Part shown: positions 1,236 to 58,340 of the stretch, piece by piece
Layout: every line of letters begins with the position of its first letter
Position numbering within the stretch: the stretch's first letter is position 1
Assembly (NCBI GenBank): GCA_018648805.1
Contig: JABGQM010000024.1
Span: 1,065 to 65,064, forward strand
Source: Verrucomicrobiota bacterium
GTDB lineage: Bacteria; Verrucomicrobiota; Kiritimatiellia; UBA8416; JABMPJ01
Direction: 5' to 3'
Length of the DNA stretch: 64,000 nt
Translations under genes and position numbers: made by a program
The notes under the pieces: model-generated
The model's input: the letters and a program-made list of their open reading frames with translations, nothing else
The model's database searches: none
Told to the model about the DNA's origin: nothing

Positions 1236-1330
1236 ATCAGAGATTAAGGCGAAAGACCAGGGAACCCAAGCACGGATACCTTAATCTTTCGCCTTAATCT
1301 TTTGCCCTGATCTTCTGCCCTGATTTTCTG
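1236..1330. repeat. GATTAAGGCGAAAG hairpin element (family D) + 12-nt tandem (ccctgatcttctg) upstream of paralog 1
   Basis: gattaaggcgaaagaccaggg aacccaagcacggatac cttaatctttcgccttaatc: arms reverse-complementary. Confidence 0.7.
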
Positions 1331-2530: not shown

Positions 2531-4492
2531 CTATGGCTGGGGGTATTGGGGTATTTCCACCCCTCCCTTTCCCATCATCTCCCTTGTCTTGCGCAGATTC
2601 TCACGTGCCGCATTATAATCCGGCTTCAGTCGCAACGCCCGCTCGAAATGCCGGATCGCGTCGGGAAGCCGGCCGCCGGCCCGGTAGACAATGCCCAGGT
2701 TGTTGTGAGCTTCAGCGAAGTCCGGCTTGAGCCGGACGGCCTGCCGGTAGTGCTCAATCGCTTCGCGGGGGCGGCCCAGCTTCAGCAGGGCGTTGCCCAG
2801 GTTGTAGTGGGCATCCGCCAGGTTCGGCTTGATCCGCACAGCCTCTTGATAGTGGACAATCGCTTCCTGCGGTCGCCCGAGCGCCTCGAGTGCGATGCCC
2901 CAGTTGAAGTGTGCCTCCGCGTGGTCGGGCTCGAGCCGTAGGGCTTCGCTGTAGAGAGGGATCGCCTCCAGTGGGCGGCTCAACTTCAATAGGACATTGC
3001 CCAGGTTGCTGTGAGCGTCTGCCATGCCGGGCTCGAGCCGCAGCGCTTCCTGCAAGTGCAGAACGGCTTCGCGCGGACGTCCCAGCTCCAGCAGGGCATT
3101 GCCCAGATCGTTGTGGGCGGTTGAAGAGTGGGGCCGTTTCTCGACGTTGTCGGTCCAGAATGCCAATGAAGTGCGCCAATCGCGGTTGCGCACGAAGGTT
3201 CCCGTGGCCAGGGCGACTATCAAGGCCGCCGCCAAGAACGCCTCAACGGCTCTGCGTGGGCCGGCCCTGGCGATCCCCCGACGCAGCAGGAGATCAAGCC
3301 CCGCCAGGGCGGAAATCACAACCGTGGCCAACGCCAGGTACATGCGGTGTTCATTGTAGACGTTCAGCGTGGGGGCAATGCTCGACGACGGAGCCAGCAG
3401 CACGAAGAAGGCGAAGCCCAGAAAAGCGACGGGACGCCGCTTGATGATACCGACTAGGCTGAAAACAAACAGAATGACCAACGGAAGCGCCGGCAGCAGG
3501 ATCTCCAACCAGCCTTGCGAGACGCGATTGGTGTAGTCGAGCACGAGCCCGCGTGGCCAGAAGGCGAGGCGCAGGTATTTCAGGATGACCAGGGGCTGTG
3601 ATCCGGCGTAGTGCAGAACGCCCGTACTGGACGCGTCGTGCGCCATCTTCCCGAATGTCGCCGCCACTAGGAGGATCATAATGACCCAGGTCGAGATCAG
3701 CCCGAGGTAGAGGCCGCGGCGTTGGCGCCAGAGGTGGGCGGGCGCCTGTCTACTTGTCTCTGATCCCCCTATGTGGCCTCGCTCTCGGCGAGAGCGGGCT
3801 ACACCCATTGTGCGTCCCTGTAGCCCGCGCTCGCCGAGCGCGAGGCCGCCCCTAAACACGTAGTCATACAGCATCACCAACAAAGGCGCAGTCACCATGC
3901 TCTCCTTGGTTCCCATTCCCAGCGCACAGGCGACGATGGCAATGGCGGTCCAGCGGCATGGGCGGGTGCTGGTGAAGGCGCGAATCGACGCATAGAGCGT
4001 GAGGAGGTAGAACATCCCCATCAGGGAGACGGCGCGCTGCACGGTGTAGGTGACCGCCTCGGTCTGCAGCGGGTGCACCGCCCAGACGGTCGCCGCGACG
4101 GCGGCGAACACCGTCGGCCCGGCGCGCGGCCGGGATGCCTCCGGCAGGGCGGCGAGGGTCCGCCGTGCGATACCGAACAGCAATAGCGCCGAGGCCAGGT
4201 GCACCAGCAGGTTGACCAGATGGAAGCCCCAGGGCGCATCGCCCGTGAGCTGGTAGTTCAGCGCCAAGGAGAGGGCGAGGACCGGTCGCGTATCGACCGT
4301 GGCGCCCGTGTTCCAGAGCGGCAGGCAGAGCGGCTCGGAGAGAGGCCACAGCCGGCGGATATGGGGATTGTCGCGGATCGATTCGACATCATCGACCTCA
4401 AAGAACTCGCCCTGCAGACCGCTGGAAAAGGCCAGAATGACGGGAAGGACGATCAGGAGGAGGGGGAGGAGACGTTTGAGTGGATGTTTCAT
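2531..4492 (-). CDS. TMTC/PMT-like GT-C membrane domain + TPR-repeat protein (paralog 2), with in-frame REP/BIME insertion
   Basis: Conserved N-term YDDxxSIRDNPHIR, HLVNLLVHLA, VHPLQTE(A/S)VTY, MGxK; C-terminal TPR units (AEAHxNLGxAL...). Insertion RGGLALGERGLQGRTMGVARSRRERGHIGGSETS absent from copy 1. Confidence 0.7.
   Translation of the reverse strand: MKHPLKRLLPLLLIVLPVILAFSSGLQGEFFEVDDVESIRDNPHIRRLWPLSEPLCLPLWNTGATVDTRPVLALSLALNYQLTGDAPWGFHLVNLLVHLASALLLFGIARRTLAALPEASRPRAGPTVFAAVAATVWAVHPLQTEAVTYTVQRAVSLMGMFYLLTLYASIRAFTSTRPCRWTAIAIVACALGMGTKESMVTAPLLVMLYDYVFRGGLALGERGLQGRTMGVARSRRERGHIGGSETSRQAPAHLWRQRRGLYLGLISTWVIMILLVAATFGKMAHDASSTGVLHYAGSQPLVILKYLRLAFWPRGLVLDYTNRVSQGWLEILLPALPLVILFVFSLVGIIKRRPVAFLGFAFFVLLAPSSSIAPTLNVYNEHRMYLALATVVISALAGLDLLLRRGIARAGPRRAVEAFLAAALIVALATGTFVRNRDWRTSLAFWTDNVEKRPHSSTAHNDLGNALLELGRPREAVLHLQEALRLEPGMADAHSNLGNVLLKLSRPLEAIPLYSEALRLEPDHAEAHFNWGIALEALGRPQEAIVHYQEAVRIKPNLADAHYNLGNALLKLGRPREAIEHYRQAVRLKPDFAEAHNNLGIVYRAGGRLPDAIRHFERALRLKPDYNAARENLRKTREMMGKGGVEIPQYPQP
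3775..3848. repeat. REP pair (BIME-like) inside CDS 2531..4492, in frame
   Basis: ggcctcgctctcggcgagagcgggctaca...ctgtagcccgcgctcgccgagcgcgaggcc; each REP = GTAG tail + 7-bp stem CGCGCTC/GAGCGCG with 3-nt loop. Confidence 0.85.
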
Positions 4493-4495
4493 CCT

Positions 4496-6460
4496 TCAGC
4501 CTTCATCCTTCATCCCTCTCTTCATCGTCGCCCTCGTCTCCCGCAGATTCCTCTGCGCCGCAGTATAATCCGGCTTCAGTCGCAACGCCCGCTCGAAATG
4601 CCGGATCGCGTCGGGAAGCCGGCCGCCGGCCCGGTAGACAATGCCCAGGTTGTTGTGAGCTTCAGCGAAGTCCGGCTTGAGCCGGACGGCCTGCCGGTAG
4701 TGCTCAATCGCTTCGCGGGGGCGGCCCAGCGCGACCACGGCATTGCCCAGGTTGTAGTGGGCCTCCGGCAGGCCCGGGCTGAGCCGCAGCGCTTCCCGGC
4801 AGTGCTCAGCCGCTTCCCGGGAGCGGCCCAAAGCGTGTAGCGTACTGCCCAGGTTGTTGTGGGCGTCGGCAAAGTCAGGCTTGTGCTGAAGGGCCTCCTC
4901 ATAGTGCAGAATCGCCTGAGCGATGTGCCCCAACGCCTGCAGGGCATTGCCCAGGTTGTGGTGGGCGCGGGCGAAGTCGGGATCGAGCGCCACGGCTGCC
5001 TTAAGATGCTGGGCCGCTTCCGCGTATCGTCCATCCTTCAGCAGGCACCAGCCCACGCCGTTCCGGGCAAACGAACTCTCCGGACGATGGGCGACATTGT
5101 CCTGCCAGATCCGCAGTTCACTGTGATAGTCCCTGTTGCGGGCGTGTGTGAGGCACCCGAGCGCGGCTACGACGGTCAGCGTCAGGCAGCCGCCCAGCAC
5201 GGCCCGCCGTTTCGGATGCGGGGCGAGCTTCCGAATAGCGTATTCAGCGCCAAGAACGGCAAGCATGACGACGGCAGCCAGCGACAGGTACATGCGGTGC
5301 TCAAAGATCGCCTGCCGCATGGGCGCGATGCTCGAGGTCGGCGCCAGGATCAGGAAGAACCACGCGAGCACAAACCCATACCACTTGCGGCGCCACAGGC
5401 CGCGGAACATCACGGCCAGCATGCCCAGGACGGCCAGCCCCGGGAACACGATGCGCGGCCATTGATCCTCCAGCGTCCAGCCGTAGGAGAGCACCAGCGG
5501 CGCGGGCCAGACCGCCAGACGCAGGTACTGCAGCAGAACGAGGGGCTGGGTCAGGGCATAGCGCAGCGGGCTGATGTTGACGAAATCGATCGTTGATTCC
5601 TGCCAGGTGGCGACGATGATCCCGAAGACGATCAGCCAGGTGGAACACAGGGCCGCGTAGAACCGGCCTCGCCCCGGACGTCCGGGGCGGGCTACATGGC
5701 CGCCTCTCTGTAGCCCGCGCTCGCCGAGCGCGAGGCCACCAGGTTTGAGGCCACCAGTGAATACGTAGTCATAGAGAATCACGAGCAGCGGCGCGCTGAA
5801 CATGGTTTGCTTGACCCCCATTCCGATGGCACAGGCGATGACGGCGGCCACGTACCAGCGTCCACCCTTGTCGCTCGTGAACCCACGGATGGAGCAGTAC
5901 ATCGTCAGGAGGAACAGCATGCCCATCAGTGATTCGGCACGTTGCACGATGTAGGTGACGCTCTCGGTCTGCAGCGGGTGCACCAGCCAGATCAGGGCGG
6001 TGGACAGGGCGAGCCAGGTTCCCCTCCTGCGCCAAGGCTCCGGCGGGCAGGCGCTGGATGCATACCGCTCCCGAAACTGCGGCAGGTCCAGCGTGCGCCT
6101 GACGATGCCAAACAGGAGCAGGCCGGCCGCGAGGTGGATCAGCAGGTTGACCAGGTGGTAGCCCCACGGCTCTGGACCGAAGAGCCAGTGGTTTAGGGCA
6201 AAGGAGAGGCTGAGCAGCGGCCGGCCATCCACGGTGACACCGGTGTTCCACAGCGGCAGCGACATGGATTCGCTGAGCGGCCACAGCGCCCGGATATGGG
6301 GATTGTCGCGAATGGAGTCGATATCGTCGAAGAGGAACACGCCGTCGAAACTGTTCCAGTACGCCAGCACCCCCACTAGGATGAGGAGCATGGGAGGGAG
6401 GAGGCGACTCAGCAGTATGTGAGTGTGTGGGTGTGTGGGTGTGTGGGTGTTGCTTTGCAT
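4496..6460 (-). CDS. TMTC/PMT-like GT-C + TPR protein (paralog 3), in-frame REP insertion
   Basis: Same architecture; stop 4 nt from start of paralog 2; loop insertion GGLALGERGLQRGGHVARPGRPGRGRF encoded by REP pair 5666..5737. Confidence 0.7.
   Translation of the reverse strand: MQSNTHTPTHPHTHILLSRLLPPMLLILVGVLAYWNSFDGVFLFDDIDSIRDNPHIRALWPLSESMSLPLWNTGVTVDGRPLLSLSFALNHWLFGPEPWGYHLVNLLIHLAAGLLLFGIVRRTLDLPQFRERYASSACPPEPWRRRGTWLALSTALIWLVHPLQTESVTYIVQRAESLMGMLFLLTMYCSIRGFTSDKGGRWYVAAVIACAIGMGVKQTMFSAPLLVILYDYVFTGGLKPGGLALGERGLQRGGHVARPGRPGRGRFYAALCSTWLIVFGIIVATWQESTIDFVNISPLRYALTQPLVLLQYLRLAVWPAPLVLSYGWTLEDQWPRIVFPGLAVLGMLAVMFRGLWRRKWYGFVLAWFFLILAPTSSIAPMRQAIFEHRMYLSLAAVVMLAVLGAEYAIRKLAPHPKRRAVLGGCLTLTVVAALGCLTHARNRDYHSELRIWQDNVAHRPESSFARNGVGWCLLKDGRYAEAAQHLKAAVALDPDFARAHHNLGNALQALGHIAQAILHYEEALQHKPDFADAHNNLGSTLHALGRSREAAEHCREALRLSPGLPEAHYNLGNAVVALGRPREAIEHYRQAVRLKPDFAEAHNNLGIVYRAGGRLPDAIRHFERALRLKPDYTAAQRNLRETRATMKRGMKDEG
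5666..5737. repeat. REP pair inside CDS 4496..6460, in frame
   Basis: gggctacatgg...ctgtagcccgcgctcgccgagcgcgaggcc. Confidence 0.85.
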
Positions 6461-6545
6461 GACAAACGATTAAGGTGAAAGATTAGGGCGAAAGATTAGG
6501 AAACCCAAGCACGGATACCTTAATCTTTCGCCTTAATCTTTTGCC
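6461..6545. repeat. Family D hairpin element, occupies whole 5' leader of paralog 3
   Basis: gattaaggtgaaagattagggcgaaagattagg aaacccaagcacggatac cttaatctttcgccttaatcttttgccctaatc; ends 5 nt before ATG (minus strand). Confidence 0.75.
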
Positions 6546-8606
6546 CTAATCCTCCACTCTCCCTTCCCCCTCCCCAATCATCTCCCTATCGATCATGCCC
6601 AAGTCTCGCAAAGCGATGCTCAGGTTGTTGTGGGCTTCGGCGTGGTCCGGCTTGAGCTGTAAGGCATGCCGGTAGTGCTCGACAGCCTCCCGCGGTTGCC
6701 CCAGTGCCAGCAGGGCGTTGCCCAGGTTGAAGGACGCTTCCGCCATATCAGGCTTGATCCGCAGCGCTTCCCGGCAGTGCGGGATGGCTGCCTGCAGGTG
6801 ACCCAGCGTCAGCAAGGCGTTGCCCAGGTTGTTGTGGGCTTCGGCGTGGTCGGGCTTGAGCTGCACGGCCTGCTGATAGTGGGGTATGGCTTCCTGCAGG
6901 CGCCCTGCCGCTGCCAGTGCCACCCCCAGGTTGTAGTGGGCCTCTACCCGGCCCGGATCGAGCTGCAAGGCCTGTTGATAATGTGATATCGCATCCTGTG
7001 GCCGCCCTGTCGCGTAAAGAGCCATACCCCAGTTGTTGTGGGCCTCCGCGTAGTCGGGTTTGAGCCGCAGCGCTTCCCGGTAGTGCGGGATGGCTTCCAG
7101 GGGCCGGCCCAGCGCATGCAAGGCGTTGCCCAGGTTGTTGTGGGCTTCGACGTGGTCGGGCTGGATCCTCAGGGCGGACCGGAGATGCCTGACCGCTTCC
7201 GCGTATCGTCCCTCATTCCGCAGGGAACAGGCCAGATTGTTGCGGGCAAAATGGCTCTCGGGGCAATGGGCGACATTGTCCTGCCAGATCCTCATCGCAC
7301 TGTGATAGTCCCGGTTGCGGTCGTGCGTGCGGTATCCCAACACGATCACGCTTGCCAGCGCCAGACAGCCGCCCACTGCGGCCCGTCGTTTCGGATGCGT
7401 GGCCAACTTTCGAACAGCGTATTCAGCGCCAAGAACGGCAAGCATGACGACGGCAGCCAGCGACAGGTACATGCGGTGCTCAAAGATCGCCTGCCGCATG
7501 GGCGCGATGCTGGAGGTCGGCGCCAGGATCAGGAAGAACCACGCGAGCACAAACCCGTACCACTTGCGGCGCCACAGGCCGCGGAACATCACGGCCAGCA
7601 TACCCAGGATGGCGATAGCCGGAAACACGATGCGCGGCCATTGATCCTCCAGTGTCCAGCCGTAGCTCAGCGCCAACGGCCAGGGCCAGATCGCTAAACG
7701 CAGGTAGGTTAGAAGTACGAGCGGCTGGGTGAGGGCATAGCGCAGCGGGCTGATTGTGACGAAATCGCTCGTCGACTCTTTCCAGGTGAGCCCGATGATC
7801 CCGAATACGATCAGCCAGGTGGAGCACAGGGCCGCGTAGAACCGGCCTCGCGCTCGGCGAGCGCGGGCTACAGGGGCCGCTCTCTGTAGCCCGCGCTCGC
7901 CGAGCGCGAGGCCACCAGGTTCGAGGCCACCAGTGAATACGTAGTCATAGAGAATCACGAGCAGCGGCACGCTGAACATCGTCTGCTTGACCCCCATGCC
8001 GATGGCGCAGGCGAGGACCGCCGCCACGTGCCAGCGTCCGCCCTTGTCGCTCGTGAACCCACGGATAGAGCAGTACATGGTCAACAGAAACAGCATGCCC
8101 ATCAGTGATTCAGCACGTTGCACGATATAGGTGACGCTCTCGGTTTGCAGCGGGTGCACGATCCAGATCAGGGCGGTGGCCAGGGCAAGCCAGGTCCCCC
8201 TGCTGCGCCAAGGCTCCGAAGGGCAAGCACTGCGTGCAAACCGCTCACGAAAGCGGGGCAGCGCAAGTGTGCGCCTGATCACCCCGAACAGCAGCAACCC
8301 GGCCCCGATGTGAATCAGCAGATTGACAAGATGGTAGCCCCACGGTTCCGGGCCAAAGAGCCAGTGGTTCAGGGCGAAAGAGAGGCTGAGCAGTGGCCGC
8401 CCGTCCACGGTCAACGCCGAGCTCCACAGCGGTAGCGACATGGCCTCGCTCAGCGGCCAGAGCTGGCGGATGTGGGGGTTATCGCGAATGGAGGCCAGGT
8501 CGTCGTAAACGAACACGCCGTCAAAGCTGCTCCAATAGACCAGCACACCCGCCAGGATGAGGAGGAGGGGGGGAAGGAGACGTCTTGTTTGCTGGAGGTC
8601 TTTCAT
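6546..8606 (-). CDS. TMTC/PMT-like GT-C + TPR protein (paralog 4), in-frame REP insertion
   Basis: Same motifs; insertion GGLALGERGLQRAAPVARARRARGRF encoded by REP pair 7855..7922. Confidence 0.7.
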   Translation of the reverse strand: MKDLQQTRRLLPPLLLILAGVLVYWSSFDGVFVYDDLASIRDNPHIRQLWPLSEAMSLPLWSSALTVDGRPLLSLSFALNHWLFGPEPWGYHLVNLLIHIGAGLLLFGVIRRTLALPRFRERFARSACPSEPWRSRGTWLALATALIWIVHPLQTESVTYIVQRAESLMGMLFLLTMYCSIRGFTSDKGGRWHVAAVLACAIGMGVKQTMFSVPLLVILYDYVFTGGLEPGGLALGERGLQRAAPVARARRARGRFYAALCSTWLIVFGIIGLTWKESTSDFVTISPLRYALTQPLVLLTYLRLAIWPWPLALSYGWTLEDQWPRIVFPAIAILGMLAVMFRGLWRRKWYGFVLAWFFLILAPTSSIAPMRQAIFEHRMYLSLAAVVMLAVLGAEYAVRKLATHPKRRAAVGGCLALASVIVLGYRTHDRNRDYHSAMRIWQDNVAHCPESHFARNNLACSLRNEGRYAEAVRHLRSALRIQPDHVEAHNNLGNALHALGRPLEAIPHYREALRLKPDYAEAHNNWGMALYATGRPQDAISHYQQALQLDPGRVEAHYNLGVALAAAGRLQEAIPHYQQAVQLKPDHAEAHNNLGNALLTLGHLQAAIPHCREALRIKPDMAEASFNLGNALLALGQPREAVEHYRHALQLKPDHAEAHNNLSIALRDLGMIDREMIGEGEGRVED
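7855..7922. repeat. REP pair inside CDS 6546..8606, in frame
   Basis: ggcctcgcgctcggcgagcgcgggctacag/ctgtagcccgcgctcgccgagcgcgaggcc, two inverted copies. Confidence 0.85.
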
Positions 8607-10145
8607 CTATAAAAGGGCCGCAGCCTTGGCCTCCTTTTCTATGGCCTCAGCCTGACGGTCCAGCTTCCGCAGGATGACTCCCCACGTCTGCCACACAGTC
8701 GCCTTTTCCGGTTCGAGGGCCGCGGCCTCCCGGCAGAGCGGCAGTGCTTCCTCGTCCCTCCCCAGCGTCGACAAGATCGTGGCAGCACTTATCCTGTACC
8801 CGGCCTTGTCGGGCGCCAATTCGGCCGCTTTCCGAAAGCCCGCCAATGCCGCCTGCAGATCGCCGGTTGCCGCCTGCATGACAGCCAACTCAGCCAACAG
8901 ATCGGGATCGTCCGGCCGCAGGCGCACCGCGTCCTGCAGGTGCTGAAGGCTTTTCTCGGGGTAAGAAGCCTGCAGACACCGCGCCTCACCGATGAGCGCG
9001 TCACTCATATCCTGCCAGCGCGCGTTCGTGCGCTGTGCGACGAACTCGGCCGCCGCAACGGCATCCTCGGTGAACGGTCCAGCGGCCGATGGAACGGCTC
9101 GCTCACCGCCCACCGCCGCCACCACCTCTTTGAGGGCCAGGGCCGCCACGGTACTCCCGGTTTCGTTGGGGTGCCACCCGTCGCCCACCGTGTAGGCGAG
9201 TTTCGGCCCGTTGCCAAGCTTTGTCGCGGCATAGTGTTGACGAAACGCGGGGGCAAGCCGGAAACACGGGATCCCCACCGCGCGGGCAAGCGGTTCAACG
9301 ATCAGGGTGGTGCCGTCCGGCATGAAAGGTATTTCGGTGATCGCGTCGTCCTCGAAGACGGGCCAAACAGCAACGGCCGGCCGAAACCCGTAGATGTCCG
9401 CGAGTCGCCGCAGCAGGGCCAGGCCCTGCACGACGTTGTTCGATCCGATCGCGGTCTTATTCCGCACTACCGGATCGCGCCGCATGCCGAAACTCGTCCA
9501 TCCGGCACTCACCAGCGTGGCGCGGAACAGGTGCGAACGGGCGAACAATGCCCGGAAGGCTGGCGAGGGCACGTCCTTGTCGGCAAGGGCCTCGACAATG
9601 GACGAATTAAAGTTCTCAAAATCGTTCCAAAAGAAGACGACGATCACGATGTCGGGTTCGAATTTCAGCCCTTTAACGCGCAGCAGTTCGACTTCGGCCA
9701 AGGTACAGTAGCCTCCGACGCCGAAGTTCAGTACCTCGGTCTTGCCGTCCGGGTAGAGCTTCTCGAGTTCACGATTCATGACATCGTTGACGTCGGAAAT
9801 CTCGGTGCTCTCGACGATAGAGTCGCCCAGCAGAATCACCCGGCGCACCCCCGGCGGCTTTGCGATGGTGCGCTCGATGTCGCGCTGCCCGTGGGCATTG
9901 ATCCTTTCGCAAGTAAAGTCGTGATCCGGACTCGGGTTGTAGTAGTCAGGCTTCAGCTCGTAGCCGAGGATGGGATTGTCCGAACGCCGGTAGATGGACT
10001 CGTGATCCTCGAAGGACACGGTGATACGCCGGAACGGCGGGGCGAGCTTGAGCGCCATGGCCAGGATCTCCCCCGCTCCGAGGGCCACTACAACCGCGAG
10101 GATCAGCAGCAGGAGGCGAAAGAGGAGGCGCGCGTTCTTGGTCAT
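8607..10145 (-). CDS. SGNH/GDSL hydrolase domain + C-terminal TPR protein, membrane anchored
   Basis: TM anchor LLFRLLLLILAVVVAL; ILLGDSIVES (GDS), GDGWHPNETG (DxxH); C-terminal TPR-like repeats; stop abuts start of paralog 4. Confidence 0.65.
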   Translation of the reverse strand: MTKNARLLFRLLLLILAVVVALGAGEILAMALKLAPPFRRITVSFEDHESIYRRSDNPILGYELKPDYYNPSPDHDFTCERINAHGQRDIERTIAKPPGVRRVILLGDSIVESTEISDVNDVMNRELEKLYPDGKTEVLNFGVGGYCTLAEVELLRVKGLKFEPDIVIVVFFWNDFENFNSSIVEALADKDVPSPAFRALFARSHLFRATLVSAGWTSFGMRRDPVVRNKTAIGSNNVVQGLALLRRLADIYGFRPAVAVWPVFEDDAITEIPFMPDGTTLIVEPLARAVGIPCFRLAPAFRQHYAATKLGNGPKLAYTVGDGWHPNETGSTVAALALKEVVAAVGGERAVPSAAGPFTEDAVAAAEFVAQRTNARWQDMSDALIGEARCLQASYPEKSLQHLQDAVRLRPDDPDLLAELAVMQAATGDLQAALAGFRKAAELAPDKAGYRISAATILSTLGRDEEALPLCREAAALEPEKATVWQTWGVILRKLDRQAEAIEKEAKAAALL

Positions 10146-14500: not shown

Positions 14501-16699
14501 TCTCTTCATCATTTTCCTCGCCTTGCGCAGATTATCTCGCGCCGCAGTATAGTCCGGTTTCAATCGCAGCGCCTCTTCAAAATGCCGGATCGCCTCGGCG
14601 AGTCGGCCGCTTTTCTGGTAGGTCATGCCCAGCTTGTAGTGGGCTGGTGCGAACTCCGGTTCGAAACGCAGGGCGTCTCGATAGCAGTCCATCGCCTCCC
14701 CGGGCTTCCCGGCCGCTTCCAGTGCAATCCCCAGGTTGTACTTGACCTCGGGGGAGTGCGGCTTGAGACGGGCTGCTTCACGGTGGTGCCTGACCCCTTC
14801 CCGGGGCTGTCCCTGCGCCAATAGCGCGTTGCCCAGGTTGATGTGAGCTTCCGCGTGATTCGGGTCGAGCTGTATGGCCTCTCGGTAGCGGGCAATCGCT
14901 TGCCGCGGCTCACCGGCTGCCTCCAGGGCAACCCCCATATTGTAGTTGATTCCGACGGAGTCCGGCTTGAGCCTGAGCGCATCCCGGTAATGCACAATCG
15001 CCTCCCGTGGATGCCCGCCTCTCAGCAGGGCATCACCCAGATTGCCCTGGGCGTCTTCCAGGTCCGGCTTGATCCGTACGGCCTCTCGATAGTGATCTAT
15101 CGCCTCCCCCCGCTGTCCCGACACCTCCAGGGCGATACCCAGGTTGTAGTTGACATCGGCGTCGTCCGGTTTGAGCCGAAGCGCCGCCCGGTAGTGCCGT
15201 ATGGCTTCACGGGTCTGCTTCAGAGCTAGCAGGGCATTGCCCAGGTTGTTGTGAGCATCTGCATACTCCGGGTCGATCCGCAGCGCTTCCCGGCAATGCG
15301 GAAGCGCTTCCCGGGCGCGACCCGACGCCAGCAGGGCCTCGCCGAGATTGACGTGGGCCAGCTGGCTCTCCGGCCGATGCGCAACATTGTCCTGCCACAA
15401 CCCGATGGTGCTGTGATAGTCACGGTTGCGAGCATAGGTGAGGGCCCCGAGGACAACCACGACTACCGCTGCCAGGGCGCCACGCGCCATTGCACGCGTT
15501 GAAACCGTGCGAACGCATCGGACCACGCGCGAGACGCCGATCACCGCGAGGACCACGACCGCCGCGAGCGACAGGTACATGCGGTGCTCGACCATCGCCT
15601 GCCGTGTGGGTGCGATGCTGGAGGTCGGTGCGAGGATCAGGAGGAACCACGCCAGGACGAACCCATACCAGCGGCGGCGCCACAGGCCCCGAATCATCAC
15701 GGCCAGCATGCCCAGAATAACCAGGGCCGGAAACACGATGGGTGGCCACTGAGTTGTAAATGGCCACTCGTAAGACAGAACCAGTGGCGACGGCCAGACC
15801 GCCAGGCGCAGATACTGCAGTAGAACGAGGGGCTGGGTAAGGGCGTAGCGCAGCGGACTGATCTCGACAAAATCGATCGTCGATTCCTTCCAGGTTAACC
15901 CGATGATGCCGAGAACGATCAGCCAGGTGGCAAAGAGGCCCGCGTAGAACCGGCCTCGCGCTCGGCGAGCGCGGGCTACATGGCCCGATCTCTGTAGCCC
16001 GCGCTCGCCGAGCGCGAGGCCATCGGTGAATACGTAGTCATAGAGAATCACCAGCAGCGGTGCACTGAACATCGTCTGCTTGACTCCCATGCCGATGGCG
16101 CAGGCGACGACGGCGGCCACGTACCAGCGTCCACCCTTGTCGCTCGTGAACCCCCTAATCGCACAATACATCGTCAACAGAAACAACATCCCCATCAGTG
16201 ACTCGGCGCGTTGCACGATGTAGGTGACGCTCTCGGTCTGCAGCGGATGCACCAGCCAGATCAAGGCGACGGCAAGCGACAACCAGGTCGGGTTGCCCGG
16301 GCATCGCTCGCGAAAGCGCGGCAGGTCCAGTGTACGCCTGACCACCCCGAAGAGGAGCAACCCGGCCACGAGGTGAATCAGCAGGTTGACCAGGTGGTAG
16401 CCCCACGGTTCCGGGCCGAACAAGAAATGATTCAGAGCAAATGACAGACTGAGCAACGGCCGCCCGTCCACGGTCGTAGCCGTGCTCCACAGCGGCAGCG
16501 ACATAGCCTCACTGAGCGGCCACAGCGTGCGGATATGTGGGTTATCCCGAATGGAGGTTAGATCGTCGTACAGGAACACGCCGTCGAAGCTGTTCCAGTA
16601 CGCCAGCACACCCGCCAAGATCAGGAGCAAGGGGGGGAGGAAACGACTCAGCAGTATGTGAGTGTGTGGGTGTCTGGGTATGTTGGTGTTGCGTTGCAT
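14480..16699 (-). CDS. TMTC/PMT-like GT-C + TPR protein (paralog 7), in-frame REP insertion
   Basis: N-term MQRNTNIPRHPHTHILLSRFLPPLLLIL then conserved core; insertion DGLALGERGLQRSGHVARARRARGRF from REP pair 15952..16021. Confidence 0.7.
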   Translation of the reverse strand: MQRNTNIPRHPHTHILLSRFLPPLLLILAGVLAYWNSFDGVFLYDDLTSIRDNPHIRTLWPLSEAMSLPLWSTATTVDGRPLLSLSFALNHFLFGPEPWGYHLVNLLIHLVAGLLLFGVVRRTLDLPRFRERCPGNPTWLSLAVALIWLVHPLQTESVTYIVQRAESLMGMLFLLTMYCAIRGFTSDKGGRWYVAAVVACAIGMGVKQTMFSAPLLVILYDYVFTDGLALGERGLQRSGHVARARRARGRFYAGLFATWLIVLGIIGLTWKESTIDFVEISPLRYALTQPLVLLQYLRLAVWPSPLVLSYEWPFTTQWPPIVFPALVILGMLAVMIRGLWRRRWYGFVLAWFLLILAPTSSIAPTRQAMVEHRMYLSLAAVVVLAVIGVSRVVRCVRTVSTRAMARGALAAVVVVVLGALTYARNRDYHSTIGLWQDNVAHRPESQLAHVNLGEALLASGRAREALPHCREALRIDPEYADAHNNLGNALLALKQTREAIRHYRAALRLKPDDADVNYNLGIALEVSGQRGEAIDHYREAVRIKPDLEDAQGNLGDALLRGGHPREAIVHYRDALRLKPDSVGINYNMGVALEAAGEPRQAIARYREAIQLDPNHAEAHINLGNALLAQGQPREGVRHHREAARLKPHSPEVKYNLGIALEAAGKPGEAMDCYRDALRFEPEFAPAHYKLGMTYQKSGRLAEAIRHFEEALRLKPDYTAARDNLRKARKMMKRGMRDEG
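15952..16021. repeat. REP pair inside CDS 14480..16699, in frame
   Basis: ggcctcgcgctcggcgagcgcgggctaca...ctgtagcccgcgctcgccgagcgcgaggcc. Confidence 0.85.
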
Positions 16700-16775
16700 G
16701 ACAAACGATTAAGGCGAGAGATTAAGGCGAAAGAGTGGAAAACCCAAGCCGGAAACCCTAGTCCTTCGCCCTGAT
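16700..16775. repeat. Family D hairpin element (degenerate copy) in 5' leader of paralog 7
   Basis: gattaaggcgagagattaaggcgaaagagtgg aaaacccaagccggaaacc ctagtccttcgccctgatc. Confidence 0.6.
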
Positions 16776-17025
16776 CGTCCGGGGGCCTCGCCCGGACTTC
16801 CGACGCGGGCGAGAAAGGGAGGGCGGGGTCGAAAGGCGGGGGCATTGAGTGAGGCAGGGCCAGACCTAGAAACTGGAAAGTAGAGTGACGTTCGGGCGTG
16901 GCAGTCTTTCTGCATGCCGAGACCGTGGCGAGTACGATATCCTGGGCGAAGTACCATGTGACCAGCAGAGGCAATGGGCGAGCGCGTATCTTTCTGTGCC
17001 GGTCAGACAACCTGCGATTCCTCGA

Positions 17026-18574: not shown

Positions 18575-18720
18575 CTGTAGCCCGTCCCGATTGCGAAACG
18601 CATCGGGACCAAGCGCGAGGCCCTCCCTGTAGCCCGCTCTCGCCGAGAGCGAGGCCGCTCTGTAGGTGGGCAGAGCTCTTGAGCATCCTGCCTCGCGCTC
18701 GGCGAGCGCGGGCTACAGGA
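18575..18720. repeat. Intergenic REP cluster
   Basis: four GTAGCCCG/CGGGCTAC units in alternating orientation. Confidence 0.8.
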
Positions 18721-21929: not shown

Positions 21930-22223
21930 CAGCGCGGGCTACGTAGCCCAGAGTGAAGTTGGCCGGTCCGCATCCCGCATGGCCCTCCCAGTAGCCCGCT
22001 CTCGCCTGCCCTCCGTCTTGTCCTCCAAAGCTCGCAGAGCGACGGAGGAAGCCAGCGAAGCGCGAAGGATGGGCCGAGAGCGAGGCCGCTCTATGATGGT
22101 GCAGAGCTCTTAAGCATCCTGCCTCGCGCTTGGCAAGCGCGGGCTACATAGCCCAGAGTGAAGTCACCCGGTCCGCATCCTGCATGGCCCTCCCTGTAGC
22201 CCGCGCTCGCCGAGCGCGAGGCC
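21930..22223. repeat. Intergenic REP/BIME array (about six units with a ~90-bp composite unit duplicated at 21932 and 22138)
   Basis: gcgcgggctac(g/a)tagcccagagtgaagt...ctgtagcccgcgctcgccgagcgcgaggcc. Confidence 0.8.
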
Positions 22224-22860: not shown

Positions 22861-23030
22861 CTGTAGCCCGCCCCGCAGATGCAGGGCTTAACGTCGCCCA
22901 TTGGCCTCGCGCTTGGCAAGCGCGGGCAACATGCATCAGCTCCCCTGTAGCCCGCTCTCGCCGAGAGCGAGGCCGACTCCAGGTGGAAGCCTTGCCCTCC
23001 ATCATCCTGCCTCACGCTCGCCGAGCGCGG
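22861..23030. repeat. Intergenic REP cluster
   Basis: ctgtagcccgccccgcag...ctgtagcccgctctcgccgagagcgaggcc...cctcacgctcgccgagcgcgg. Confidence 0.75.
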
Positions 23031-28243: not shown

Positions 28244-28661
28244 TGGCTCTGCAGGTGGAGTAGAGCTCTTGAGTATCCCGACGTGACCCCGGCCTCAACC
28301 GGCCTTGTCCCGCGGCACTCGGGATACCCCCTGCAGCCCCAGAATTCGCCCCGGGTGGAGCTGCGCTTTTGCATGGGCTTTGCGCACTGCGGGCAGGTCG
28401 GGGCATTCAACCGGGAAAGAGCAGTTGGCCGAGAAGACAAGGGCAAAGATTAGGGTAAAGACGAGGGGACTGGATCTCTCCCTTAATCTCTCCAAAAGCG
28501 GCGGCGCTACCGAAGTACACCCAGCGGGTGCAAGCTCGGAGAACCGGATCGTCAATGCCGACAGGCTATTCCGGTGTTTCGCGCAGTTGAACTGCCGACT
28601 ATAAACTCAACCGGCGCCAGCATGATCGAGAGGGATATCCTCTGACCTGTGCCTTTGGCCC

Positions 28662-30351: not shown

Positions 30352-30509
30352 GGCCTCGCGCTTGGCAAGCGCGGGCTACAGGAAACCCATCCAGCCTCCC
30401 CGCATCACTTCTCCGCCATGTAGCCCGCGCTCGCCGAGCGCGAGGCAAGATGCTCGATGGCATTACTCCCAATGAAACCAGCCACGCTCTCGCCGAGAGC
30501 GGGCTACAG
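30352..30509. repeat. REP cluster flanking RAYT (upstream side)
   Basis: ggcctcgcgcttggcaagcgcgggctacagg...tgtagcccgcgctcgccgagcgcgaggc...ctctcgccgagagcgggctacag. Confidence 0.8.
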
Positions 30510-32278: not shown

Positions 32279-32347
32279 GCCTCGCTCTCGGCGAGAGCGG
32301 GCTACAGGGAGGTGCATCATGTAGCCCGCGCTCGCCGAGCGCGAGGC
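32279..32347. repeat. Intergenic REP pair
   Basis: ggcctcgctctcggcgagagcgggctacaggg...tgtagcccgcgctcgccgagcgcgaggcc. Confidence 0.85.
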
Positions 32348-35204: not shown

Positions 35205-35296
35205 ATGTAGCCCGCGCTCGCCGAGCGCGAGGCCGACTCCATGTAGAAGCCCTGCCCTTGACTATCCTGCCTCGCGCTTGGCAAGCGCGGGCTACA
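35205..35296. repeat. Intergenic REP pair
   Basis: tgtagcccgcgctcgccgagcgcgaggcc...cctcgcgcttggcaagcgcgggctaca. Confidence 0.85.
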
Positions 35297-38243: not shown

Positions 38244-38337
38244 CCTGTAGCCCGCTCTCGCCGAGAGCGAGGCCAGATGCTCGAGGGCAATACGCCAACA
38301 TGGTGCCGGCCTCGCGCTCGGCGAGCGCGGGCTACAA
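38244..38337. repeat. Intergenic REP pair
   Basis: ctgtagcccgctctcgccgagagcgaggcc...ggcctcgcgctcggcgagcgcgggctaca. Confidence 0.85.
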
Positions 38338-44260: not shown

Positions 44261-44390
44261 GTAGCCCGCTCTCGCCGAGAGCGAGGCTCCCCGTGGATAT
44301 GGGCATTGGCGCCATCTCTGCCTCGCGCTCGGCGAGCGCGGGCTACATGATGCACGTTCCCTGTAGCCCGCGCTTGCCAAGCGCGAGGCC
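44261..44390. repeat. Intergenic REP cluster (3 units)
   Basis: tgtagcccgctctcgccgagagcgaggc...cctcgcgctcggcgagcgcgggctaca...ctgtagcccgcgcttgccaagcgcgaggcc. Confidence 0.85.
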
Positions 44391-44401
44391 ATCCCGGAAG
44401 A

Positions 44402-45166
44402 CTAGGGCAAAAGATTCGGGTCGGACCGATCTCTCACGGCTTTCCGTCCTCGAACGCGCAGATCCCAGAGCAGCCGGAACAGGCATGCGATCACGGCGAC
44501 ACTGTTCCGCCACCGATAAGATCGCGTGCGCCCACCATCTTCGAACGCATCCGTTACCCCTACCTCGCAATAGCTGCAGCCGCCACGAATCAGCTTGCAC
44601 AAGGCCTCGGCTTGAAAGGCATAGCTGCAGGTCCGAATCTCTATGCCGTTGAGATCCTCCCGCCTGTACAGGGGCAAGTGCATGTAGTACTTCAACTTCA
44701 GGCCGGCCACGAGCCCTATGGCGCTTGTCAGGCCATGCGAAATGAGTCGCCGTAGCACAGGCCGCTCGTGGCTATTCAGAGTATAGGGCACGATGATGTC
44801 GGCGCTTCCGGCCCGTTCCCATATCCGGCTCATCTCCTCGGCCGTGTTGCCGCCCTTGCCGTGGTAAAGCGTAACAAAGTCCATCCCGGCGCGGGTCAGC
44901 CCGCTCTTGAACGCGCCGCCAAGGTTGTGTGGCCGGTCGTGATGGATGACACTGATCCGCCCGTCCGCGGCGGCCAGCTCGTCCGCGATGCGGCCCGTGC
45001 CGTCCGTGCTGCCGTCATCGACGATAATGATCTCGTAGTCCCGGAAATGGCGTGGCGCGGCATCTGCCACGACACCGACCGAACGCCTGAGAAAACGCTC
45101 CTCGTTCAATGCCGGGATGATCACCGATACCGTTTTGCGGTGCGATGCACCGTCGTCCTGTTGCAT
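44402..45166 (-). CDS. GT2 glycosyltransferase, DPM1-like, paralog B
   Basis: VSVIIPALNEERFL, IIIVDDGSTDGTGRIA, DIIVPY. Confidence 0.8.
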   Translation of the reverse strand: MQQDDGASHRKTVSVIIPALNEERFLRRSVGVVADAAPRHFRDYEIIIVDDGSTDGTGRIADELAAADGRISVIHHDRPHNLGGAFKSGLTRAGMDFVTLYHGKGGNTAEEMSRIWERAGSADIIVPYTLNSHERPVLRRLISHGLTSAIGLVAGLKLKYYMHLPLYRREDLNGIEIRTCSYAFQAEALCKLIRGGCSYCEVGVTDAFEDGGRTRSYRWRNSVAVIACLFRLLWDLRVRGRKAVRDRSDPNLLP

Positions 45167-48812: not shown

Positions 48813-51170
48813 ATGAACGACAGGATAGACAAACAAGAGCCCCACACACCCACACACTCACACGCTCATGCTCTGCTCCCCCGTCTCCTCCCCTTCCTCC
48901 TCATCATCCTGGCCGGCGTGCTGGCCTACTGGAACAGCTTCGACGGTGTGTTCGTCTATGACGACCTGGACTCCATTCGCGATAACCTGCACATCCGCAA
49001 GCTCTGGCCGCTCAAGGAGTCCCTCTCGCTGCCGCTGCTGAGCAGTGCAACCACCGTGGACGGGCGGCCGTTGCTGAGTCTCTCACTGGCGTTGAACCAC
49101 TCGCTTTTCGGTCCGGAGCCGTGGGGCTACCACCTGGTCAACCTGCTAATCCACCTCGCGGCCGGACTGCTCCTGTTTGGCGTCGTCAGGCGTACGCTGC
49201 ACCTGCCGCAGTTTCGTGAGCGCTACGCGCGAAGTGCTTGCCCTTCGGAGCCTTGGCGCAGTAGGGGACGCTGGCTCGCCCTGGCCACCGCCCTGATCTG
49301 GCTGGTCCATCCCCTGCAGACCGAGAGCGTCACCTATATCGTGCAACGCGCCGAATCACTGATGGGCATGCTGTTTCTGCTGACGATGTATTGTGCGATT
49401 CGCGGGTTTACGAGTGGGGAGAGTCGGGAGGAAGACGGGTCGCACGGTGCCCAGGAACATGCAAAGGTCCCGGCCGAGAGGAACTACAGCGAGAACTTTG
49501 TCGTGAACCATTCCGATTCTAACTATTCCGTGAACTTTGCCGAGAACTACTTCGGACTAGTTTACGGCAAAGTTTACGGGATAGTCCGGCGATGTAGTTT
49601 ACGACAAAGTTCACGATGTAGCTGCAGGTCAGGCACAAAGAACCCATCCCTTTGGTACGTGGCGGCGATCATCGCCTGCGCCATCGGGATGGGGGTCAAG
49701 CAAACCATGTTCAGCGTGCCGCTACTGGTCTTGCTCTACGACGCCCTGTTCATCTCCGACTCGTTTCGTGCCGCGCTGACGAAGCGGTGGCGGCTCTACG
49801 CGGCCCTCTGTTCGACCTGGCTGATCATTTTCGGGATCATGGCGCTCTCATGGCAGGAATCGACGATCGACTTCGTCAAGATCAGTCCGCTGCGCTACGC
49901 CCTCACTCAGCCGCTTGTGATTCTGTACTACCTGCGCTTGGTGTTCTGGCCCTCGCCGCTGGTGCTGGAGTACGGCTGGGCATTGGAGGATCAATGGCAT
50001 CGCATCGTGTTCCCGGCTCTCGCCATCCTGGGCATGCTTGCCGCAATGTTCCGCGGCATAGTCCGCCGCAAGTGGTACGGGTTCGTGGCCGCGTGGTTCT
50101 TCCTGATCCTGGCCCCGACGTCAAGCATTGCGCCCACACGGCAGGCCATCTTCGAACACCGCATGTACCTGTCGCTGGCAGCGGTTGTCATGCTCGTGGT
50201 CGTTGGTGGTGAGGCCGCGCTGCGCAAGCTGGTCACGGAGCGGAAACGACGTGTCGTGCTCGGTGGCTGCATGGTGACGGCAATCATGATTGTACTCGGA
50301 TGCCTGACACACAACCGCAACACGGATTATCATAGTGAGATCGGGATTTGGCAGGATGATGTCGCCCATCGCCCCGGGAACGCGCTCGCGCATCTCAACC
50401 TGGGCAATGCCGTGCAGGGGGTGGGACGTCCGCGGGATGCGGTCGCACATTACCGCGAAGCGCTGCGATTGAAACCGGACTACGCGGAGGCTCACTACAA
50501 TTGGGGGGTTGCACTGGAGGCGGCGGGTCAGACGCAGGAGGCGATGGTCCACTATCAACAGGCCCTGCAGCTCAAGCCGGACTATGCCGAAGCCCACAAC
50601 AACATGGCCCACGCGCTGGAGGCCTCGGGACGCCCCCGGGAAGCTGTTGAGCACTGCCGCAAGGCCCTGCAAATCAGGCCTGGACTGCCGGACGTCCACT
50701 TCAACCTGGGCAACGCCCTGCAGGCGCTGGGCCGTTCCGGGGAAGCTATTCAGCACTACCGTGAGGCGCTACGGCTGAGACCCGACTACGCCGAAGCCCA
50801 TCTTGGCTGGGGCAACGTGCTGTTGGTGTCGGGCCGGCTGGAGGAAGCGGTCGGGCAGTACCGGGAAGCGCTGCGACTGAAACCGGACTACGCGGAGGCC
50901 CACTATCACTGGGGGATGGCACTGGACGCGGCACGGCGGCCGCAGGAATCGATGACGCACTATCAACAGGCCGTGCGGATCAAGCCGACTATGGCGGCCG
51001 CGCACCTTAACCTGGGCAATGCCGTGCTGGCGCTGGGCCGCCCCCGCGAAGCAATTCCACATTACCGGCAGGCCCTGCGGATCAGGCCGGACTACGTCCA
51101 CGCCCGCGACAACCTGCGTCAAGTCCAGGCGATGCTGCGGGAGGGCAGGGGGACGAACATCGAACACTGA
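48813..51170 (+). CDS. TMTC/PMT-like GT-C + TPR protein (paralog 8, plus strand) with in-frame insertion of GTGAAC-type repeat
   Basis: Same conserved core as array paralogs; ~70-aa low-complexity insertion (NYSENFVVNHSDSNYSVNFAENYFGLVYGKVYG...) encoded by repeat 49480..49626; no REP insertion. Confidence 0.7.
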   Translation: MNDRIDKQEPHTPTHSHAHALLPRLLPFLLIILAGVLAYWNSFDGVFVYDDLDSIRDNLHIRKLWPLKESLSLPLLSSATTVDGRPLLSLSLALNHSLFGPEPWGYHLVNLLIHLAAGLLLFGVVRRTLHLPQFRERYARSACPSEPWRSRGRWLALATALIWLVHPLQTESVTYIVQRAESLMGMLFLLTMYCAIRGFTSGESREEDGSHGAQEHAKVPAERNYSENFVVNHSDSNYSVNFAENYFGLVYGKVYGIVRRCSLRQSSRCSCRSGTKNPSLWYVAAIIACAIGMGVKQTMFSVPLLVLLYDALFISDSFRAALTKRWRLYAALCSTWLIIFGIMALSWQESTIDFVKISPLRYALTQPLVILYYLRLVFWPSPLVLEYGWALEDQWHRIVFPALAILGMLAAMFRGIVRRKWYGFVAAWFFLILAPTSSIAPTRQAIFEHRMYLSLAAVVMLVVVGGEAALRKLVTERKRRVVLGGCMVTAIMIVLGCLTHNRNTDYHSEIGIWQDDVAHRPGNALAHLNLGNAVQGVGRPRDAVAHYREALRLKPDYAEAHYNWGVALEAAGQTQEAMVHYQQALQLKPDYAEAHNNMAHALEASGRPREAVEHCRKALQIRPGLPDVHFNLGNALQALGRSGEAIQHYREALRLRPDYAEAHLGWGNVLLVSGRLEEAVGQYREALRLKPDYAEAHYHWGMALDAARRPQESMTHYQQAVRIKPTMAAAHLNLGNAVLALGRPREAIPHYRQALRIRPDYVHARDNLRQVQAMLREGRGTNIEH
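49480..49626. repeat. GTGAAC-type palindromic element (family B) inside CDS 48813..51170, in frame
   Basis: gagaactttgtcgtgaacca...ccgtgaactttgccgagaactac...gtagtttacgacaaagttcacgatgtag; arms are reverse complements. Confidence 0.75.
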
Positions 51171-51254: not shown

Positions 51255-51455
51255 ACGTAGTTCACGACAAAGTCCACGGGCTGGTTTTTCGAGGTAGTTC
51301 ACGACAATGTTCACGATGTAGTGTTCAGCTCCATCGCATGGGGCGCGAAGCCACTGTTGTCCATAGTCCTGTTAGAGCACTCACCTCGTGAACTTTGTCG
51401 TGAACTACCCCGCAATAACTACAGCGTTGAACTTTGTCGTCAACTATTTCGATCC
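51255..51455. repeat. Family B palindromic element, intergenic
   Basis: gtagttcacgacaaagtccacggg/gtagttcacgacaatgttcacgatgtag ... cgtgaactttgtcgtgaactacc/gttgaactttgtcgtcaactatttc. Confidence 0.75.
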
Positions 51456-55857: not shown

Positions 55858-55892
55858 GGGGGAATGGCGCTTAGTTAAGCCACTTCTCCCAC

Positions 55893-56027
55893 TATTTCGT
55901 AAACTTTGTCGTGAACTATCTCGATCCCTACTACTCCGTGAACCTTGTCGTAAACTACTCCGGAATAGTTCACGACAAGGTTTGCGAGGTAGTTATTCGG
56001 TTATAGTTCACGACAAAGTTCACGATC
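55893..56027. repeat. Family B palindromic element, intergenic
   Basis: cgtaaactttgtcgtgaactatc...ccgtgaaccttgtcgtaaactac...tagttcacgacaaggtttgcgagg...tagttcacgacaaagttcacgatc. Confidence 0.75.
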
Positions 56028-58140: not shown

Positions 58141-58340
58141 CCTAGATAAGCACGGGTCTGCCCATTTCAATATCCAATATCCAACAAGGAACTCCCAATA
58201 TCCAAGTGAGCGCTATCAGCGAATGGTGTGTCATGTGACTGGACATTCGCCCTTCGCACGCACTTGGGAGTTGGGAGTTCCTTGTTGGATATTGGGTGTT
58301 CAATTTCCTCCAATGAGCGCCTTATCCAAGTGCTATTTTC
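58141..58340. repeat. Family C MITE-like element
   Basis: atccaatatccaacaaggaactcccaatatccaagtg...cacttgggagttgggagttccttgttggatattgggtg (≈38-bp terminal inverted repeats). Confidence 0.75.

Follow-up and report, generated by a model that had tools for sequence, protein, structure and literature searches.

A class-wide palindromic repeat family of Kiritimatiellia, built from inverted 13-nt units, at the gene junctions of a paralog array

Why do some genes of a paralog array stand behind a long hairpin?

The question raised by this locus is what a long hairpin is doing directly ahead of a few members of a family of closely packed genes. The window, meaning the whole stretch of 64,000 nucleotides analyzed here, comes from the genome of a Verrucomicrobiota bacterium. 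Its leftmost 17 kb are a minus-strand array of tightly packed genes, which holds seven PMT_2 and TPR membrane proteins (P1 to P7) and two SGNH/GDSL-type genes. P3 to P7 are 80–89% identical among themselves, and P1 is 88% identical to P2. A sequence-only reading of the window had reported hairpins of about 80 nt, with inverted arms and a conserved loop, upstream of the starts of P1, P3, and P7. All three are present (1236-1330, 6461-6551, and 16700-16793), and they do lie upstream of the ATG codons of these minus-strand genes, at 1197, 6460, and 16699, respectively.

The hairpin observation is thus confirmed. The arms match one another beyond chance, with eight matches to an arm 20-mer in the window at no more than 3 mismatches, where 0 are expected. 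The loop, AACCCAAGCACGGATAC, is exact in two of the three copies (1263-1279 and 6502-6518, against a chance expectation of 0.1) and has diverged in copy 7. What the earlier reading did not mention is the makeup of the arms, which consist of tandem 13-nt units (GATTARGGCRAAA) inverted around a loop of 14–17 nt. The features of the array are as follows:

6461..6551: copy 3, the best-preserved hairpin, which fills the entire P4-P3 intergenic gap; on the mRNA (minus) strand its 5' arm is GATTAGGGCAAAA-GATTAAGGCGAAA-GATTAAGG, its loop TATCCGTGCTTGGGTTT, and its 3' arm CCTAATC-TTTCGCCCTAATC-TTTCACCTTAATC
1236..1330: copy 1, with core units at 1242-1312 and two decayed outer units of the 5' arm extending to 1330
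16700..16793: copy 7, decayed, with a degraded 5' arm and a diverged loop, ahead of the first array gene, P7
6546..6548, minus strand: TAG stop codon of P4 (6546-8606), which comes from the outermost 13-nt unit of copy 3
6406..6467, minus strand: extension of the repeated module, made of GTTTGTC, ATG (6458-6460), and a CA-rich stretch encoding MQSNTHTPTHPHTHILL
44386..44447: relic with one arm (GACTAGGGCAAAAGATTCGGG), adjoining three GTAG REP units

The RNA fold of copy 3 is predicted at -46.7 kcal/mol (z = -7.8), and 0 of 200 shuffled sequences fold as well. For copy 1, the minimum free energy is -50.6 kcal/mol over a 146-nt stretch (centroid -42.1; z = -3.5), and for the decayed copy 7, z is only -1.5, although its 3' arm and GTTTGTC-ATG module are well preserved. 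A profile made from 43 copies of other genomes recovers copies 1, 3, and 7 with E-values of 1e-15, 2e-20, and 2e-11. The same profile also picks out two relics in the window, at 28436-28497 (E = 3e-5) and 44386-44447 (E = 1e-3), and the stop codon of a minus-strand GT2 gene (44402-45166) lies inside the second. Copy 1 is identical in the MAG GCA_018673455.1 and in four other assemblies. An assembly artefact is ruled out, since the same copies occur in five independent assemblies.

How do the hairpins shape the genes next to them?

In the junctions that have no hairpin (before P2, P4, P5, and P6), the upstream stop codon lies 0–3 nt from the ATG, and those before P2, P5, and P6 read ...GGATGAAGGCTGAAGG ATG. 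The same array also has one -4 nt overlap and one 24-nt gap. Copy 3 does sit close to the P3 start with no separate Shine-Dalgarno sequence, as had been noticed. The end of its last 13-nt unit is 7 nt from the ATG. Its predicted helix reaches within about 2 nt of that ATG, and the GAAGG found upstream of the ATG at the hairpin-less paralog junctions is missing here. The P1 ATG is 45 nt downstream of copy 1, behind a purine-rich, Shine-Dalgarno-like stretch.

On the upstream side, the element now supplies genes with C-terminal tails and the stop codons that close them. The first SGNH gene, SGNH1 (1294-2400), was rightly described as running into copy 1 with its last 12 codons. The protein ends in ...SGQKIRAKD* (stop codon 1294-1296), and this tail is translated from the two decayed outer units of the 5' arm. 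In copy 3, the P4 stop is inside the outermost unit, and P4 takes its C-terminal ...VED* from the element.

On the downstream side, the element and its CA-rich extension supply a start codon and a His/Thr-rich N-terminus to P3, to P7, and to an SGNH-TPR gene on another contig of the same genome (L125). The CA-rich stretch is microsatellite-like (CACACCCACACAC), lies at 6406-6460, 16645-16699, and L125 4307-4365, and is translated to a His/Thr-rich N-terminal extension (MQSNTHTPTHPHTH). It is common to P3, P7, and the unrelated SGNH-TPR gene (L125:4307). Start calls for P3 conflict: JGI gives 654 aa from the upstream ATG, and NCBI gives 631 aa from Met24. A conserved LSRLLPP upstream of Met24 favors the ATG at 6460 as the likely start.

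What does a second array of the same genome reveal?

The second contig, L125, belongs to the same MAG and has a PMT/TPR-SGNH array of its own. Three further intact hairpins and a single relic lie there, each of them at a gene junction. In the roughly 90 kb of the window's genome that were covered, the six intact copies seen are all in such PMT/TPR-SGNH paralog arrays, and the remaining 47 kb of the window hold relics only. One loop subfamily in this genome sits at the junctions of PMT_2/TPR-SGNH arrays.

Several features recur between the two arrays. The KIRAKD* tail is found on SGNH1 and on one TPR gene, and the VED* tail on P4 and on another TPR gene. P3 and P7 have the hairpin, GTTTGTC, ATG, and N-terminus in common. 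The longer module, which comprises the hairpin, GTTTGTC, the ATG, and the CA-rich stretch encoding MQxxTHTxTHPHTHILL, also stands ahead of the SGNH-TPR gene, whose paralogue in the window starts differently. The same module before unrelated genes in two arrays indicates that it has been relocated or recombined separately from its flanking genes. In both arrays the hairpin module separates non-homologous gene pairs, marking off blocks of one to four genes. In one L125 copy, the loop contains a nested repeat of another family. The subfamily has been copied and reshuffled both with the array genes and independently of them, and its spread here probably came about mainly by duplication and recombination inside the paralog arrays.

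A metagenome scan with a 20-mer of the window loop matched four stretches: copy 1, two contigs 100% identical to L125, and one probable chance match without arms. Through homologues of SGNH1, no orthologous site was recovered in both a filled and an empty state. Contigs with an identical SGNH1 protein represent the same strain and have identical hairpins. Homologues at 43–57% identity are either not syntenic or without a hairpin, and the SGNH homologue at 57% identity has no hairpin downstream.

How is the family built?

The anatomy of the family was drawn from 119–121 copies. The consensus is A(GATTARGGCRAAA)n GATTARGG, a loop, and CCYTAATC(TTTYGCCYTAATC)n T, with n from 1 to 4. Two units per arm is the commonest arrangement, and the order of the units is invariably forward and then reverse. 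The inverted repeats of the arms span 21–47 bp, and the element contains no open reading frame. It is flanked by purine-rich sequence on the 5' side and pyrimidine-rich sequence on the 3' side, where T makes up 88% at position +1 and C 45–61% thereafter. The GC content is 44%, compared to 60% for the loci.

The arms are conserved, being near-identical between genomes, and the loops vary freely, although the contrast is partly an effect of ascertainment because the scan pattern itself fixed the arm sequence. Loops are mostly 14–16 nt long and fall into at least 40 unrelated types, several of which are multi-copy and common to different genomes.

Compensatory base changes between copies, the mark of a selected RNA structure that the earlier reading had proposed to look for, are absent. 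Watson-Crick pairing is nearly invariant at 11 of the 13 stem positions, and the position that does vary is preferentially mismatched. At position 6 (R), the pair is G.T or A.C in 85 of 119 innermost half-units and Watson-Crick in only 14. Counted by pairs, position 6 is Watson-Crick in 27 of 91, which is below the expectation for independently varying arms. An AAGG unit consistently lies opposite an AGGG unit; position 10 behaves similarly and has no A-T pairs. This pattern is the opposite of compensatory evolution.

Another property of the family is that it acts as a stop in every frame. Stop codons occur in all six frames in 99 of 121 copies (82%), compared to 1 of 121 controls of the same length. 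This follows from the TAA or TAG that each unit carries on both strands and from the unit length, since 13 is not a multiple of 3.

How far does the family reach, and where do its copies lie?

Species-representative genomes were scanned with the pattern GATTARGGCGARAGA-N10-40-TCYTTCGCC. Among the matches listed, there are more than 111 loci in at least 32 species-level assemblies, with up to at least 18 loci in a single MAG. The listed assemblies are nearly all labeled Kiritimatiellae, Victivallales, Lentisphaerae, or PVC group. Every source genome is a MAG, and the few matches that bear non-PVC labels are probably binning errors. Many copies lie at contig ends, as expected of repeats that break assemblies. 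Viral contigs gave 0 matches to the pattern.

The genes beside the copies are unrelated to each other. At the 111 loci listed, sulfatases, which abound in the class, are the only recurrent neighbor family. A cognate transposase was sought by clustering the neighbor genes of these loci, which returned only sulfatases and housekeeping genes. The proposal of a dedicated leader for the paralogs is not supported by this survey, since copies elsewhere adjoin unrelated genes in at least 32 species.

With genes called by a simple longest-ORF rule, which is crude for the foreign loci, all copies are intergenic. By the same rule, the hairpins occur in 38 tandem, 27 convergent, and 7 divergent contexts, and the hairpin-free intergenic regions of the same loci number 255, 83, and 87. 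Copies are thus over-represented in convergent regions and under-represented in divergent ones (p = 0.0013 by chi-square; the odds ratio for convergent versus divergent is 4.0, with p = 0.0012), so that placement is biased toward the 3' ends of genes. Of 40 copies in tandem contexts, 26 are closer to the upstream stop and 14 are not, a difference that is not significant. For several flanking ORFs, the stop codon is precisely the TAA or TAG in the outermost unit.

Relative to transcription, no strand preference emerges. The sense strand folds better in 20 cases and the antisense strand in 18, and the inner G.U side is the sense strand in 17 versus 17. The hairpin is not a canonical intrinsic terminator: no T-run follows the stem at the copies, and a scan for the terminator consensus was empty there. 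A scan for the sigma-70 promoter consensus likewise found nothing at the copies. When the whole window was searched against Rfam, nothing passed the gathering threshold, and the E-value mode returned only generic long-hairpin microRNA noise far below threshold. Literature searches on the sequence, on palindromic or MITE repeats of Kiritimatiellae, and on REP in Verrucomicrobia yielded no description of the family. It is, in the literature searched, a previously undescribed palindromic repeat family.

Is the hairpin mobile DNA?

The hairpin is physically associated with a true MITE. At least five genomes contain a sharply bounded 245-bp element that carries the 13-mer hairpin, intact, as its inner module. 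The left end of this element is CCTATATCCGGCAGTTCAACTGC..., its interior has a small GCACCC-N4-GGGTGC hairpin followed by the 13-mer hairpin, and its right end is ...CCAACTGCTCTTTCTAGG, with the two ends forming imperfect inverted repeats. It is flanked by 5-bp TTNAN duplications (TTCAA, TTCAG, TTGAC, TTTAC, and TTCAC). Judged by its sequence, the 245-bp element is a classical MITE. A degenerate member is present in the window:

28402..28606, minus strand: degenerate composite MITE of the 245-bp family, flanked by TTGAG and TTGAA
28402..28606, ends and small hairpin: left end ...AGTCGGCAGTTCAACTGC, small hairpin GCACCCGCTGGGTG, right end CCAACTGCTCTTTCCCGG, the inverted ends being of the GGCAGTTCAACTGC type
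28402..28606, interior: decayed 13-mer hairpin at 28436-28497

The free-standing hairpin is another matter. The earlier suggestion that it might be a further MITE family holds insofar as it is a dispersed, multi-copy repeat, but the 113 free-standing copies show no target-site duplication, with no direct repeat of 4 nt or longer at any offset. For this reason, "REP/foldback-like" fits the free-standing hairpin better than "MITE". No transposase or other mobilizing gene was found in the window ORFs searched or adjoining copies elsewhere, and the loci retrieved show no long element with 13-mer arms at its ends.

Hairpins of one loop subfamily, TTGCTTATGCTCCAC, also occur inside at least two further composite repeats that have their own conserved flanks and are sometimes tandem. 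These flanks read GTAACTTCA-N5-TGAAGTCA or are CTTGCCTATAACTT direct repeats. Composites of this kind, with L046-type flanks, occur at loci L018, L030, L035, L042, L053, L066, L060, L079, L081, and L090.

What else does the window contain?

The window is rich in other repeats. A separate, GTAG-tagged REP family (GTAGCCCGCGCTCGCCGAGCGCGAGGC), unrelated in sequence to the 13-mer element, is represented in the window by 25 units, mainly arranged in inverted pairs. They lie at 3776-3846, 5710-5736, 7845-7912, 15953-16020, 18629-18716, 22121-22222, 22904-22973, 29631, 30353-30446, 32279-32347, 35207-35295, 38247-38335, and 44261-44389. Those inside P2, P3, P4, and P7 keep the reading frame and contribute GLALGERGLQ...VARAR to the protein, which makes them intragenic REPs within a loop of the PMT/TPR paralogs.

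A palindromic family of short tandem units, CAATATC/GGATATT, occurs in the window at 58166-58303 and in L125 at 9895-9950, where it is the family nested in the loop of a 13-mer hairpin. At another locus, L037, a similar TTGAATATTGAATATTC motif adjoins a hairpin. A further intergenic family of inverted repeats, with units such as CGTGAACTTTGTCGTGAACTA, is found at 49484-49621, 51287-51415, and 55891-56025, in the glycan-biosynthesis part.

Positions 19552-63804 look like a surface-glycan or secondary-modification island. Its genes include a carbamoyltransferase, several radical SAM/SPASM and B12-radical SAM proteins, GT2 and GT9 glycosyltransferases, a DegT aminotransferase, split transketolase genes, and a TPR paralogue (48813-51170), as well as Schlafen/AlbA_2, DUF4062, and AAA_14/DUF4143 ATPase genes.

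What explains the hairpin best?

The hairpin belongs to a family of short interspersed palindromic repeats that extends across the class. The family is probably REP/foldback-like and selfish in character, and its effects on mRNA are, on the best reading, incidental. As a non-autonomous selfish element, it would require the arms alone in order to propagate. That need would keep the arms across species, and the loop would drift freely and give rise to loop subfamilies. A putative trans-acting enzyme would read the 13-nt units or the imperfect hairpin, fixed mismatch included. Copies would survive where they do the least harm, downstream of genes, and a gene running into one would be terminated within about 35 nt, which would make insertions at gene ends tolerable. 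The distribution of the copies points to a mobile hairpin. Several observations count against the selfish reading. No mobilizing gene was found in the window or next to copies elsewhere, free-standing hairpins show no target-site duplication, and no filled and empty pair of orthologous sites was recovered. In addition, all six intact copies seen in this genome lie in paralog arrays, and a local function would give the same pattern.

On a rival reading, the hairpin would be primarily a selected, cis-acting RNA. It would tune the neighboring cistrons of a polycistronic mRNA by terminating transcription in part, by blocking 3'-exonucleases, by being cut by RNase III, or by attenuating translation. 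Effects of this kind on the expression of neighboring cistrons have been shown for some REP and Correia elements. The very stable helix is consistent with it, and so are the bias to gene 3' ends and convergent regions and the position of tandem copies nearer the upstream stop, which is not significant in itself. In copies 3 and 7 and at L125:4216, the helix abuts a start codon that lacks a Shine-Dalgarno sequence. In copy 3 and at L125:4216, the upstream stop is within the 5' arm, a geometry that would couple the cistrons; no upstream ORF reads into copy 7. In the 3' arm of copy 1, two A-to-G changes retain U.G pairs on the sense strand only.

Against this stand the missing T-run, the lack of a preferred sense strand, the lack of compensatory changes at a variable stem position that is preferentially mismatched, and the decay of copy 7. 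A purely structural RNA would have no need of an arm sequence conserved over 32 species, and a 3'-end bias is equally expected from purifying selection against promoter insertions. A selected RNA is for these reasons unlikely to be the explanation of the family.

Local consequences for the mRNA are a separate matter, and occlusion of the P3 and P7 start regions is a plausible side effect. On a polycistronic mRNA, a helix of about 33 bp would bury the initiation regions of both genes, whose translation would then depend on an upstream ribosome that stops in the 5' arm and opens the base of the helix. In copy 3 and at L125:4216, the upstream stop is at the 5' base of the helix, and folding would bring stop and start side by side. 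Coupling of this sort may explain why an insert of 85 nt is tolerated where the junction spacing is otherwise 3 nt. The same helix might block exonucleases or be cut by RNase III.

Alternatively, the 13-nt units might be a recognition array, in DNA or as a single-stranded DNA hairpin, for a recombinase or DNA-binding protein, and the array copies would be recombination junctions that shuffle gene blocks like cassettes. The conserved 13-mer sequence and the loop that varies in sequence but keeps its length speak for this, as does the fixed transition mismatch across the stem. Stem mismatches are typical of hairpins that are read as folded single strands, such as attC and the ends of IS608. The hairpin also lies between non-homologous gene pairs in two arrays, in blocks of one to four genes. 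Yet no integrase, recombinase, or transposase is found in the window or beside copies elsewhere, most array junctions have no hairpin, and copies in other genomes flank ordinary single genes. Moreover, homologous recombination between repeats accounts for the shuffling. The recognition array is accordingly rated as quite improbable.

In a bolder version, a putative Kiritimatiellia-specific enzyme acting on folded single-stranded DNA would recognize the 13-mer arms by way of features such as the fixed G.T/A.C mismatch and the loop, which is variable in sequence and not in length. Surface-glycan gene blocks would be duplicated and reshuffled via the hairpins, which would supply stop and start codons at the new junctions, in a form of cassette shuffling distinct from integrons. 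This is a speculation to which we give very little weight.

An RNA thermometer, as proposed from the sequence, or a ligand-sensing leader controlling the paralogs would fit the position directly upstream of start codons, but it can practically be set aside: going by known thermometers, a helix of about 33 bp at -46.7 kcal/mol would be much too stable for melting within physiological limits, the loop is not conserved across the family, copies lie downstream of genes and between convergent genes, and there is no Rfam match. The selfish, REP/foldback-like repeat remains the reading carried forward here.

Why does the family matter?

For annotation, the family provides a name and a searchable consensus for a repeat that breaks the MAG assemblies of Kiritimatiellia. 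For gene calling, the element explains odd protein ends (KIRAKD*, VED*), His/Thr-rich N-termini, and conflicts over start codons. It is also a caution, because hairpins like these are easily misread as dedicated riboregulators. Finally, a family that is uniform over many species, with a six-frame stop and a conserved stem mismatch, offers a tractable case for how tag-less palindromic repeats spread, and it bears on whether such repeats promote the expansion of paralog arrays in surface-glycan loci.

How does the family compare with known repeat systems?

A first comparison is with the REPs. A REP is defined as a palindrome of 20–40 bp that bears an unpaired tag, GTAG or CGTC, on one side, and GTAG- and CGTC-tagged superfamilies of REP/BIME are recognized (Di Nocera et al. 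2013, PMC3733652). REPs are high-copy and extragenic, lie preferentially between unidirectional and convergent ORFs, and have a cognate RAYT (Y1 transposase) gene flanked by the repeats (PMC3733652). Like REP/BIME, the 13-mer element is a short, multi-copy, strictly extragenic palindrome with an imperfect stem, enriched between unidirectional or convergent genes and downstream of coding regions. It shares with them the absence of a target-site duplication, and it may be transcribed within operons. Unlike REPs, it is 70–85 bp long and not 20–40 bp, it has no GTAG or CGTC tag and ends in A-GATTA...TAATC-T, and its arms consist of tandem 13-nt units in variable number. Most REPs are species-specific, whereas here one arm sequence is found in at least 32 species. 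A search for a RAYT of the 13-mer element found no transposase domain in the window ORFs and no recurrent neighbor gene at the 111 loci listed.

With MITEs and the Correia elements of Neisseria, the hairpin shares being non-autonomous, about 100 bp long, made up almost entirely of inverted repeat, and often located at gene ends. Terminal inverted repeats on a short, non-coding, multi-copy element, as in MITEs, are found in the hairpin as well. Like Correia elements, whose RNA hairpins are RNase III substrates, it may add stop codons or extend ORFs. It differs from MITEs in that free-standing copies have no target-site duplication and no parent insertion sequence was identified; only the 245-bp composite has inverted ends of the MITE type and a 5-bp duplication.

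Two known RNA classes were tried and rejected. A structured cis-regulatory RNA is not supported, with no compensatory changes, no strand specificity, unrelated loops, and an empty Rfam search. An intrinsic terminator does not fit either, as the stem has a GC content of 44% and is followed by a C-rich flank and no U-tract.

The attC sites of integrons and the Vibrio cholerae repeats resemble the family in being imperfect palindromes with conserved ends and a variable center, in lying exactly between a stop and the next start in same-strand arrays, and in the conservation of mismatches on the folded strand. Identity with attC was rejected: the consensus has no R''/R' core (RYYYAAC/GTTRRRY), the window has no integrase, and most junctions have no copy. 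Unlike attC arrays, the copies are scattered in other genomes. The foldback transposons of eukaryotes offer the last parallel, with long inverted arms of short tandem subrepeats, variable in number, around a short central loop. Those elements are eukaryotic and on the kilobase scale, so the likeness is one of architecture only. Taken with these likenesses and differences, the element is filed as a new family, with unusual features, among the bacterial interspersed palindromic repeats.
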